DNA of 64,000 nucleotides from an uncultured Verrucomicrobiae bacterium (GTDB taxonomy: Bacteria > Chlamydiota > Chlamydiia > Chlamydiales > Rhabdochlamydiaceae), in the NCBI GenBank assembly GCA_963718565.1, contig OY970364.1, forward strand, positions 896,001 through 960,000, in the 5' to 3' direction. Below the pieces are notes generated by a model. That model had not been told where the DNA came from, did not search any database, and was given only the letters and a program-made list of their open reading frames with translations. Both the position numbers and the translations under genes were made by a program. Below, one piece after another: positions 27,520-29,915 of this stretch (positions are counted from its first letter, which is position 1; each line of letters opens with the position of its first letter).

Positions 27520-27867
27520 ATGTTTCACAAGCTTATAAAATGTATGATCGCAGTATTTTTGTTCACACAGGTAGCTTTGATTGCTGTGGAAACCAAGGCA
27601 ATAGAATGCGAAGAACAGGTGTCATCTCAAATGCAGACTTTTATAGTTGCACCTCAAGATTTACATTGCGACCAAAACAACATTTTGATGAACGTCGATG
27701 GTCATCTTTATGAGGTATATTCTTTGAGAAAAAGTGGACATCAATGGCTTGCAGAAGCTGCCGTAGGAAACACGTGCGCTTGGGGACATCCTCTCTGTGG
27801 GTATTGTGAATTATGCCACCACAGAGTTTGTCCTCTCTATCAACCAAGATGCTCCCATTCAAAATGA
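27520..27867 (+). CDS. Small secreted protein with a Cys/His-rich C-terminus
   Basis: RBS GGAGG; signal peptide; CAWGHPLCGYCELCHHRVC...C. Confidence 0.7.
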   Translation: MFHKLIKCMIAVFLFTQVALIAVETKAIECEEQVSSQMQTFIVAPQDLHCDQNNILMNVDGHLYEVYSLRKSGHQWLAEAAVGNTCAWGHPLCGYCELCHHRVCPLYQPRCSHSK

Positions 27868-29915
27868 GAATACTATTGAGGGAATTGCAAAACCTTTCGC
27901 CGCATAAAATCGCGCTTTTGGCATCTGTCGCCTTGGCGGCGGCTCTCCTACTTATCCAAGTATGCTTTCGCCGCCGCCAACCGAACCCGCTGTGCGGGTT
28001 CTGGCAACAGGTGCCAAAATCATCGATTTTCTGCTGGCGAGGAGTTTTGCAATTCCCTCTATTTTGTTGCATATTGTCATGTGCTTTTTGCAATGCAAAG
28101 CCAATTTGCATTGATAGTGCACATGAATATACTATCTTAGATCAATTTTTCAAAATGGCATTTTTATCTGAAGAGTATGGATATGTACTCGAAGGATCTA
28201 AACCCATCTCCATAAGAAGCTTTGCTTCTACTGATTGTTTTCCAATTACAAAGGATTTCAATCATGATGAAATAGAATTTAATAATACACTTCTTGTTCG
28301 AGAGGTCATTCCTATCTGGAATAAATTTTGTTCTAGAAATAAACGTTTTGTTCTTAAAGTCGTAGCCCTAAATAATCAAGTTCCGTCTTTTCTATCGACT
28401 TTAGAAGTGTCCTTCATAAACATTTCTAAACTTAAAGAAGTCATAGAGAAAAACATTGATCTGTTTCGCTATGCCTTAGGACCCGCCAGTACCGTTCAAT
28501 ATATCCTAGATACCATTGCTAATGCTGACCAGCCTCTGATAAAGATCTTGAACTTCGATCTTACTTTAATGGGCATTGTGCTTGGATTTGGATCACACAA
28601 TAGTATAGTAGGTGGACGACTTGAGACAATCCTTGCTTTATCTATTTCTAAAGACCATCCCCCTTTTACTCCTCAAAGTCACTTAATGCAAGATAAAGGA
28701 GATCACGATCATAGTCTGAATGCTCTCACGCCAGAAAGATATGGAATCTACTATTTAGAACTAGCGGGTGGGGACGACATAAATTTTAGAGTAGATCTTC
28801 CTCGATTGCAACCTCATTTGACCTTTGCAAATTTGACTGAGGAAGTGCAGACCCTTGATGGACTAGAAGAATCATTACCGCCCCTGCTTTGGGAGCGACC
28901 TAGGTTCGTTTTCGGGGCCTTCACAGGAGGTCCTCCTAATGAGCCGCTTTTTAAACATTTGCGTAAGAAGCAAAAAAAAATTCAGACGCTTCTTAAAAAA
29001 TCCGATTTTTTGGAATATGTTTTGGGAAAAATTAATGGAGAAAAGCCAGCGATTCGATTCGAGAAAAAGGCTTCTTTTGTCGATATACCGACACCTAGCA
29101 CACATAATGTAGAAATATGGAGTGAAATCCTTCGAAATGCAACAAATCGCTTTGAAGGCAAGGAAAGAAAGTTGGCATTTATCGAAGCATTTTACCACCC
29201 CAGTGATTCCTTTCGAAAGCCCCCCATGATGATGGGTGCTTCAGCAGCAGCCCTTAAAGGATTAAAAATGGCTCGTTGCAAACTTGCACAAGCAGATGCA
29301 CAATTTTCAATGTTATCACAAGATGCCTCATTGAAGGAAATTGTCTCTAAGCGACTTTATTTCAAGACAGATCTCCTTGGCAATGGCAAAGAATTAAAAG
29401 AGGAAGATCATGTACGTATCAGCTATGTGATCGAAGACCAGGAGGGGAATATCCTTTTCGCTAACCATGATAGCTGGTTGCATCTTTCACAGACAATTCC
29501 TGGTTTTGCCCATGGGGTGAAAGGAATGCAAGTCCACGAAAAGCGCACCATTTTTGTTCACCCAACTCTTGGCTATGGCGCCCTAACCACTCTACCACCC
29601 TGCTCTGCCCTTATCATCAAAGTGCATTTGTTAGATGTAGATCCACAAGTTTCCGGTAGGACGTTGCCGCCTTTGGCGCCTCTTGACTTAAGCTGGGTGC
29701 AAGAGAATTCTTTTTACAAAGATATTGAAGATTCTCTCAATCAGCAGCCATATTTTGTCGGTTGTTTCTATCGCGAAATATTAGATAAAACAGATCAGTT
29801 GACAGCGGCTCTTCCTGAGCGCCGTCAACTGATCGGAACAGCGCCAAAGGACGCTGAAAATGCAGACTTACTTAGACTTAACTTGTATAAAATATGGACG
29901 AATCCAGGGGATTAG
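27864..29915 (+). CDS. Secreted protein with a C-terminal FKBP-type PPIase domain; in-frame family-A insertion in its signal peptide
   Basis: TIPGFAHGVKGMQVHEKRTIFVHPTLGYG; ATGA overlap with the upstream gene. Confidence 0.75.
   Translation: MRILLRELQNLSPHKIALLASVALAAALLLIQVCFRRRQPNPLCGFWQQVPKSSIFCWRGVLQFPLFCCILSCAFCNAKPICIDSAHEYTILDQFFKMAFLSEEYGYVLEGSKPISIRSFASTDCFPITKDFNHDEIEFNNTLLVREVIPIWNKFCSRNKRFVLKVVALNNQVPSFLSTLEVSFINISKLKEVIEKNIDLFRYALGPASTVQYILDTIANADQPLIKILNFDLTLMGIVLGFGSHNSIVGGRLETILALSISKDHPPFTPQSHLMQDKGDHDHSLNALTPERYGIYYLELAGGDDINFRVDLPRLQPHLTFANLTEEVQTLDGLEESLPPLLWERPRFVFGAFTGGPPNEPLFKHLRKKQKKIQTLLKKSDFLEYVLGKINGEKPAIRFEKKASFVDIPTPSTHNVEIWSEILRNATNRFEGKERKLAFIEAFYHPSDSFRKPPMMMGASAAALKGLKMARCKLAQADAQFSMLSQDASLKEIVSKRLYFKTDLLGNGKELKEEDHVRISYVIEDQEGNILFANHDSWLHLSQTIPGFAHGVKGMQVHEKRTIFVHPTLGYGALTTLPPCSALIIKVHLLDVDPQVSGRTLPPLAPLDLSWVQENSFYKDIEDSLNQQPYFVGCFYREILDKTDQLTAALPERRQLIGTAPKDAENADLLRLNLYKIWTNPGD
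27878..28059. mobile_element. Family A MITE (182 bp), intragenic and in frame
   Basis: gagggaattgcaaaac / gttttgcaattccctc; TSD tatt (27874-27877, 28060-28063). Confidence 0.9.

Follow-up and report, generated by a model that had tools for sequence, protein, structure and literature searches.

How can a transposable element settle in the coding region of a signal peptide and leave the gene readable? The question is posed by a 64-kb window (C1:896001-960000) in the genome of an environmental chlamydia (G000; a single contig of 2,284,058 bp, 43.6% G+C), in which a 182-bp transposable element of the miniature inverted-repeat kind (MITE) lies within the leader of a gene for an FKBP-domain protein. 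Palindromes that encode protein in frame have for 25 years been regarded as a peculiarity of Rickettsia, and the first-pass annotation of the window had suggested that this element behaves as their chlamydial counterpart. Here we describe the element, its family and its hosts, and we hold with moderate confidence that the insert is translated as an extension of the leader and removed together with the signal peptide, as a tolerated passenger.

Results

An in-frame MITE inside a putative signal-peptide coding region

Together with one copy of its 4-bp duplication TATT, the element adds 186 bp, or 62 codons, to the FKBP-domain gene, and the open reading frame (ORF) 27813..29915 is stop-free across its whole length (features in Table 1). 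The first-pass annotation had this sum right but treated “exactly 62 codons” as an argument in itself; the arithmetic stands, but nothing in it is special to this copy, since length and open frames are properties of the family. Its placement of the insertion about four codons after the ATG likewise holds when counted from the ATG at 27864, where the public gene call also starts the protein (683 aa), and not from the ATG at 27849, which lies nine codons before the site. The latter is probably the conserved start, and a paralog in the same genome begins at the corresponding position in the same CCAAGATG context. An equivalent of the ATGA overlap at 27864 is also present in G013, another genome of the genus.

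With either start, the element divides a putative Sec-type leader, separating a basic beginning (MLPFKMRIL, with K and R before the site) from the hydrophobic core FCCILSCAFC, which ends in NA directly before the K of the predicted cleavage site (hydropathy maximum 2.49). This remainder aligns with the signal-peptide ends of the paralog and orthologs, just ahead of a conserved (K)x(I/V)CID motif. The proposal that a MITE had entered a signal-peptide coding region in frame is supported. Translation also agrees with the claim that the insert lacks stops and has a hydrophobic run of its own, IALLASVALAAALLLIQV, which is followed directly by CFRRRQ. The lowest summed insertion energy of the N-terminus, estimated at -1.39, falls in the 19-residue window that begins at the helix start, 27909, and on this value the helix could itself enter the membrane; this copy has Ser in the helix where the family consensus has Pro. 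The insert also contains QPNPLCGFWQQVPK, whose tryptic peptides would be diagnostic for it. Pfam found no domain within the inserted part and only FKBP_C in the protein as a whole, the large N-terminal part being without a Pfam family, and Rfam had no family matching 27700-28250 at E ≤ 1.

The 616 codons downstream of the insert contain no stop, and their product can be aligned with homologs over its whole length. After the element, the sole start-like codon in frame is a TTG that would leave eight residues ahead of the cleavage site, too short a leader, so an exported product needs translation from upstream of the element or from within it.

The insert is absent from homologs

A paralog at C1:1276880-1278733 (63% identity) likewise follows a small Cys-rich gene of this kind, with the same overlap of end and start. 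We aligned the protein with homologs from six other genomes of the genus (alignment A1; G009, G006, G013, G017, G005 and G001, at 46-59% identity), and against the seven homologs in A1 it shows 46-60% identity over the full length. The paralog and the six orthologs have hydrophobic N-termini of 20-35 residues that end just ahead of a conserved xICID...YAILDQFF block, and the 62 extra residues occur in the interrupted protein alone. A partial homolog in G014 (49% identity over residues 74-344) also has a short N-terminus. The first-pass annotation had expected such short N-termini of related chlamydiae, and the paralog and all orthologs examined have them and are without the element. A scan of contigs gave 0 loci with the single protein and 20 with alignment A1, and by local BLAST the element consensus was absent from 30 of 30 related loci, with a single 21-nt chance match.

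In short contigs from two other soil runs of one study, possibly including the source sample, the right junction is unchanged. We found no empty-site allele in the contigs of four DNA runs, which are short pieces without cover to the left of 27874.

The two-gene module is present twice in G000 (27520-29915 of the window and G000:C1:1276500-1278736, L013), and other members of the genus share it. Its first gene encodes a small secreted Cys-rich protein with the C-terminal pattern ...C-x2-C-H-x3-CP-x-Y-x-PR, and its second, whose start overlaps the end of the first, an FKBP-domain protein of ~620 aa. At the other end of the interrupted gene, a convergent Peptidase_C39-like ORF on the minus strand (29868-30554, E = 8e-07) overlaps its 3′ end by its last 48 nt.

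Table 1. The interrupted FKBP-domain gene and the element within it (positions are those of the window)
Feature	Position	Strand	Remarks
Small Cys-rich gene, upstream	27520..27867	+	115 aa, own hydrophobic N-terminus; TGA stop at 27865-27867 overlaps ATG 27864
Start codon of FKBP-domain gene, probable conserved one	27849..27851	+	context CCAAGATG, common with paralog; 9 codons before the site
Second in-frame ATG	27864..27866	+	ATGA overlap with upstream stop; 4 codons before the site
Target-site duplication, left copy	27874..27877		TATT, 4 bp
MITE, long imperfect palindrome without transposase	27878..28059	+	182 bp, read in frame +1
Left terminal inverted repeat	27878..27893	+	GAGGGAATTGCAAAAC, 16 nt
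Element-encoded hydrophobic helix (h1)	27909..27962	+	IALLASVALAAALLLIQV, from translation
Three arginine codons	27969..27977	+	directly after helix; start of basic stretch (n2) before host hydrophobic core
In-frame GTG within element	28011..28013	+	only internal restart candidate leaving a signal-peptide-like N-terminus
Right terminal inverted repeat	28044..28059	-	perfect reverse complement of left repeat GAGGGAATTGCAAAAC
Target-site duplication, right copy	28060..28063		TATT, 4 bp; then TTGTTG, giving a T-rich tail directly after the hairpin
Residual original signal peptide, core and cleavage region	28062..28097	+	FCCILSCAFCNA; predicted cleavage before K at 28098
Mature FKBP-domain protein	28098..29915	+	FKBP_C at residues 510-590 from ATG 27864 (about 29391-29633), Pfam E = 1.2e-08

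A dispersed family of palindromic elements

The element is a genuine bacterial MITE: it has terminal inverted repeats (TIRs), a duplication of fixed length, small size, no transposase and dispersed copies. Allowing up to three mismatches, the TIR matches 17 times in the window against 1.35 expected, a count reached by 0 of 100 shuffles. Across the genome, BLAST returned 120 matches to the element, including 27 full-length copies of 181-187 bp with 94-97% identity to the copy in the FKBP-domain gene. The 4-bp duplication is perfect in 22 of these 27 and mismatched at one position in the remaining five, whereas random flanks 182 bp apart match over 4 bp at a rate of 0.6%. Counting every TIR-bounded element up to 460 bp gave 109, 68 of them with a perfect 4-bp duplication; the main size classes are 20 bp (19 elements), 182 bp (23 by this criterion) and 257, 258 and 259 bp (8, 7 and 4), and the duplications include TTAA, TAAA, TATT and TTTT. 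The frames of the MITE encode 60-residue peptides only. As RNA, the segment 27860-28080 is predicted to fold into one long hairpin (-113.8 kcal/mol, z = -12.5; 0 of 200 shuffles equally stable), and the T-rich tail after the stem, TATTTTGT, holds six T in eight bases.

Further members lie nearby. Half a copy, comprising the right arm, occupies 27303-27402 upstream of the small Cys-rich gene, with an exact TIR on the minus strand at 27387-27402, and two members of the family are thus less than 600 bp apart. A 258-bp copy of a longer subfamily lies at 31378-31635 with the duplication TAAA. Perfect 20-bp palindromes (GAGGGAATTGCAATTCCCTC) at 26454-26473 and 47860-47879 equal two TIR tips fused; the genome has 19 of them, 12 with a perfect 4-bp duplication, and their 20 + 4 bp make eight codons that are stop-free in all frames. 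The one at 26454 sits nine codons into a HlyD-like gene (25446..26504, minus strand), to which it adds residues of the type GNCNSL. These palindromes may be miniature members of the family, or what is left where full copies have collapsed.

Insertions into reading frames preserve the frame

The gain of 186 nt holds for every canonical copy, so the frame survives any canonical insertion. Stops are moreover absent from three of the six frames (+1, +2 and -2) of the 27-copy consensus, so a random hit in a gene stays open about half the time (a prior of ~0.5). Three open frames in one element are unusual: composition shuffles reached three or more in 59 of 5000 cases, and shuffles preserving a perfect palindrome did so in 73 of 5000. 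Frame +1, in which the FKBP-domain gene is read, encodes RELQN-SPHK-IALLAPVALAAALLLIQV-CFRRRQPNPLCGFWQQVPKSSIFCWRGVLQFP, and frames +2 and -2 are hydrophilic and rich in R and K.

For each of the 69 elements of at least 100 bp, we excised the element and one copy of its duplication in silico and asked for an ORF of at least 150 aa that spans the site from an upstream start. Eighteen of the 69 lie within such ORFs, have more than 30 codons downstream and are read through in the real sequence. Their length plus four is divisible by three in 18 of 18 cases, as against 22 of the 51 others (Fisher p = 1e-5). All eight copies of 257 bp (257 + 4 = 87 codons, with CACTGCG at the centre) are in ORFs, as opposed to none of the 11 members of the 258/259-bp subfamily, whose central loop (CTACTTACG) differs and of which one abuts the C-terminal end of a gene. 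Three further sites that look genic have a stop or a frameshift, but in all three (the genes for ribose-phosphate pyrophosphokinase (Prs), an AsmA-family protein and a DEAD-box helicase) the Pfam-supported start lies downstream of the site, which makes them insertions into 5′ untranslated regions. We found no gene broken by the family among the 69 elements. The count of in-frame against out-of-frame insertions that the first-pass annotation had called for thus yields 18 copies within ORFs, all of them frame-preserving, and on a genome-wide scale the family does behave as the annotation proposed by analogy with Rickettsia, every such copy being read through and its host gene intact.

The insertions cluster at gene starts, with 13 of the 18 sites falling within the initial 10% of the reading frame (binomial p = 5e-10). 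Conserved hosts supported by Pfam include SBP_bac_3, Legionella_OMP, Peptidase_S13, ABC_tran, PseudoU_synth_2, Chorismate_bind and MutY-type proteins, among others.

The frame read matches the compartment of the host

Hosts read in frame +1 are a family-3 solute-binding protein, the FKBP-domain protein of the window, an outer-membrane protein of the Legionella_OMP family, a PBP4-type peptidase, two glycosyltransferases whose N-termini are hydrophobic, and a gluconolactonase-like and one unknown protein, each with a leader. In every one of them the element sits immediately ahead of the host's hydrophobic core, and orthologs of the outer-membrane and solute-binding hosts that are without the element have ordinary, short and uninterrupted signal peptides. 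Frames +2 and -2 are read in an OppF-like ABC ATPase whose insert occupies the loop that follows the first strand, an RluA-type pseudouridine synthase, a chorismate-binding enzyme interrupted at residue 142, a MutY-type glycosylase in which the insert separates the HhH-GPD and NUDIX domains, a SET-domain protein, a TsaB-like protein, a MORN-repeat lipoprotein, an unknown protein with a leader and a collagen-repeat protein. By inspection, the hosts of the hydrophobic frame are thus without exception exported proteins (8 of 8), and those of the hydrophilic frames mostly cytoplasmic enzymes. Scored as a hydrophobic segment in the 35 residues after the site (hydropathy threshold 2.0), the split is 7 of 8 for frame +1 against 2 of 10 for the others (Fisher p = 0.015); the eighth frame +1 host is the outer-membrane protein, which scores 1.83, and by inspection and Pfam all eight have such a segment.

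One of the two glycosyltransferases (G000:C1:1881354-1882412, L056) has a DXD motif, a match to Gly_transf_sug (E = 1.7e-11) and a sub-threshold Pfam match to the catalytic glycosyltransferase domain of TcdA/TcdB (E = 4e-4).

The division between frames is indirect but specific evidence that the inserts are translated and filtered at the level of the protein. One element read in three frames amounts to a natural experiment, being hydrophobic in export leaders and hydrophilic in cytoplasmic enzymes and linkers, and its outcome suggests a reason why signal peptides would be safe landing sites: their A/T-rich codons would draw the element in, and the insert would be cleaved away together with the leader.

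In-frame copies are retained in other species

The element peptide was detected in 6 of 19 genomes of the genus (G000 with 85 matches, G004 with 8, G001 with 4, G014 with 3, and G013 and G003 with 2 each) and in none of the other 13 at E ≤ 1e-5, several of which are incomplete. In a large protein database, a search that sees exact shared words only found the insert peptide in eight longer proteins, seven from G000 and one from G004.

The leader of the gluconolactonase-like gene has an element at the same nucleotide, in the same orientation and in the same frame in G000 (G000:C1:1018889-1019145, L035) and in G004 (G004:C130, L012). Flanking coding DNA is ~90% identical between the two and the element less so, and neither ORF is interrupted by a stop. 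In G004 the TIR tips are altered on both arms in a matching way (GAGCCGATTGC / GCAATTGGCTC) and the 75-bp central piece is missing. In G000 a 1-nt deletion and a 1-nt insertion lie 77 nt apart, so that the length stays at 257 and the frame is restored. To judge from these sequences, common descent would be the simpler reading of the shared element, as against independent hits.

In G004 the leader of the MORN lipoprotein ortholog likewise contains an element, in the opposite orientation, and diverged N-terminal copies occur in a ZnuA-like lipoprotein of G004 and in an 884-aa ORF of G014. In the ZnuA-like gene (G004:C65 at ~1967-2240, L037), the left junction makes an ATG from AT of the flank and the first G of the element; a TTG right after the element would give a perfect lipoprotein leader, and the copy may lie 2 nt upstream of the true start.

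These comparisons bear on where translation of the FKBP-domain protein begins. Translation could restart at the in-frame GTG at 28011, to give a signal peptide MPKSS...FCNA, with the host start yielding a short or abortive product. The codon stands 16 codons before the end of the element, and the resulting N-terminus would combine basic residues with the host core. Yet it has no Shine-Dalgarno-like sequence before it, it is replaced in other in-ORF copies (by GAG in the copy at 1182912, and by codons for other residues in G004:C65 and G014), and a restart near the 3′ end would leave unexplained why the length of the whole element respects the frame (257 as against 258/259 bp) and why indels compensate one another. 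We therefore regard a restart at this GTG as highly improbable. An internal AGGAG was also considered as a ribosome-binding site and rejected, as a spacing of just 2 nt separates it from the one in-frame TTG nearby, and the element ends 19 nt away.

Search for an autonomous partner

We found no transposase gene in G000 that is bounded by the family TIR with a matching duplication. Where two TIRs lie 600-4000 bp apart and their duplications match, the DNA between them holds ordinary genes or an ISAs1-like composite, and the sole candidate unit, of 1740 bp, is a ~430-bp MITE with an ISAs1-like insertion sequence (IS) nested in it. A search with the right part of the ~430-bp element in 40 genomes of the organism's family gave no longer form.

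The ISAs1-like IS is 1301 bp long and is present at G000:C1:1624345-1625645 (L034) and in 12 other places, with the Pfam domains DDE_Tnp_1_assoc and DDE_Tnp_1; it has ends CAGGGCCATTTAAC... and 10-bp duplications, and of its transposase genes 11 are intact and identical and two are interrupted. One copy sits inside the ~430-bp MITE, which has the same TIR as the 182-bp family. We rejected this IS as the parent of the MITE, as its ends differ (CAGGGCCATTT...) and its duplications are 10 bp.

Discussion

How an interrupted leader could still work

The reading that we favour would run as follows. A non-autonomous MITE, whose family has expanded in this environmental chlamydia, landed in the putative Sec-type signal peptide of an FKBP-domain protein that would be secreted or periplasmic, and there parted the charged start from the hydrophobic core. 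It is read in one of the three stop-free frames, and with a gain of 186 nt the gene stays open. The pre-protein would be longer by 62 residues and would consist of a basic tail, the element helix, a basic stretch containing RRR, the original core and the original cleavage site. Translation would begin at the gene’s own start and pass through the element, and the original core and cleavage site would still work; the extra residues would be lost with the signal peptide, leaving the mature enzyme unchanged and the insertion nearly neutral. Translating ribosomes may at the same time keep the hairpin from terminating transcription.

On the scale of the genome, only insertions that the protein tolerates would be retained, namely those that preserve the frame, lack stops and for the most part lie at the very N-terminal end or in linkers; the hydrophobic frame would survive only where a hydrophobic leader is harmless, that is, in exported proteins. 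Removal of the insert with the leader would account for leaders being the place where insertions most often survive. A preference for A/T-rich targets, joined with the A/T-rich codons of n-regions, would add to the leader bias.

Several points weigh against this reading. The copy in the FKBP-domain gene appears young (perfect TIRs and duplication, 94-97% identity to the other copies, and presence in no ortholog), and selection may yet have to act on it; the paralog at 63% identity could cover a lost function. The RRR behind the helix, together with the basic N-terminal tail, makes the topology uncertain, with blocked export or an anchored protein as possible outcomes. Only 14 or 29 nt separate the candidate starts from the hairpin, behind which comes the T-rich tail; together the two might depress initiation, as in the translational gate that the first-pass annotation had envisaged, or end transcription. 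Four of the 18 sites (2417, in a doubtful ORF; 1524109; 1736469; 2058346) may lie upstream of the true start. Signal-peptide calls are based on hydropathy, inspection, Pfam family and orthologs, and the test of frame against compartment was devised after the pattern had been seen and rests on 18 sites.

Some of these points would equally suit a silencing insertion, an explanation that we regard as possible but unlikely. The element would then have silenced or crippled this copy of the gene, a pseudogene-to-be, with the paralog supplying the function; the hairpin and T-rich tail would block expression, the RRR-flanked helix would misdirect the pre-protein, or both. Consistent with this are the recency of the copy and its absence from orthologs, the great stability of the hairpin so near the start, the same upstream partner gene beside the paralog, and the tail TATTTTGT, which passes the T-run criterion of a terminator scan that, with loops of 3-8 nt, cannot score stems as long as this one. 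The downstream codons, however, are open and aligned from end to end with homologs. Seventeen other in-ORF copies lie in conserved and often indispensable genes (a major outer-membrane protein family, PBP4-type, ABC ATPase, MutY-type) and share the same hairpin, some with tails even more T-rich, so that the element as such is compatible with expression. Finally, the orthologous signal-peptide insertion has been retained with intact ORFs in two species.

Alternatively, the insert might be functional. Frame +1 could be a portable leader module that makes a long bipartite signal peptide and thereby alters the targeting route or the kinetics of export, or anchors the protein in the inner membrane. 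Its confinement to exported proteins, always just ahead of the host core, would agree with such a role, as would the N1-H1-N2-H2-C layout it shares with the long signal sequences of autotransporters, the Ser in place of the consensus Pro in the helix of the FKBP-domain copy, and the persistence of related in-frame copies in signal peptides of G004 and G014. Tolerance alone predicts the same pattern, however, because a hydrophobic helix harms cytoplasmic proteins; the hosts are functionally unrelated, their orthologs work without the insert, and intergenic copies hold the same sequence, with no sign of selection on the peptide. A functional insert is therefore, in our estimation, very unlikely. 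The wider proposition, that the family has been shaped or filtered as coding-compatible selfish DNA and that its hydrophobic frame is a mobile leader module by which the ordinary signal peptides of at least eight exported chlamydial proteins become bipartite N1-H1-N2-H2 leaders, we consider decidedly unlikely; if true, it would change how or when these proteins are exported, beyond mere tolerance.

The insertions have practical uses and consequences. Interrupted and uninterrupted leaders together provide constructs that export assays could use as they stand, and gene callers and signal-peptide predictors will mishandle such N-termini in chlamydial metagenome-assembled genomes.

Comparison with known systems

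Outside Rickettsia, MITEs overlapping ORFs have been described from Coxiella, enterobacteria and other bacteria (PMC10969869, PMC5896051). Among small repeats that carry open frames, intragenic ERIC and large BOX elements and other ORF-carrying MITEs can form in-frame fusions but, in the passages of a 2024 review that deal with them, are described as mainly intergenic, with intragenic copies exceptional (PMC10969869). The chlamydial family shares the small size and the open frames and differs in having 18 of its 69 larger copies within genes, all read through.

QMITE1 and QMITE2 of Coxiella burnetii are likewise MITEs in an intracellular bacterium; they overlap annotated ORFs and supply part of the residues of some proteins (PMC5896051). 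As far as the relevant sections of that paper describe them, they lie mostly at 3′ ends, where they provide C-terminal extensions or stops, and some lie mid-ORF in hypothetical proteins (PMC5896051), in contrast to the chlamydial MITEs, which are found mostly in the N-terminal leaders of conserved, domain-bearing proteins.

The long signal sequences of autotransporters have the order N1-H1-N2-H2-C, with an extended signal peptide region, according to the portion of the literature that treats their architecture (PMC2805444). The interrupted leader of the FKBP-domain protein has the same order, a likeness that may be taken as a functional analogy only; its extension is a transposon copy, and the host, in which Pfam finds FKBP_C only, is not an autotransporter.

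A leader bias of Rickettsia palindromic elements (RPEs) or of MITEs, or a match of frame to compartment, was not found in the literature searched, in which RPEs were covered through a review, and among the titles listed for Rhabdochlamydia together with MITE, all concerned arachnid mites. RPEs themselves are in-frame palindromic repeats within protein-coding genes of Rickettsia, whose effect on protein evolution is called still unexplored in the section of the 2024 review devoted to them (PMC10969869). As portrayed there, the two systems have much in common: short palindromes of an obligate intracellular bacterium, inserted in frame in unrelated genes, that add a conserved peptide and leave the ORF intact. 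They differ in that the chlamydial family belongs to another phylum, has 16-nt TIRs and a 4-bp duplication, offers three usable frames of different chemistry, is biased to signal peptides and the first 10% of ORFs, and is read in a frame that matches the compartment of its host. Its peptide was found only in the genus, and by behaviour the family would best be described as an analogue of the RPEs rather than a member of them. It would thus represent an independent second system of in-frame palindromes, in another phylum of obligate intracellular bacteria and with clear hallmarks of a transposon.

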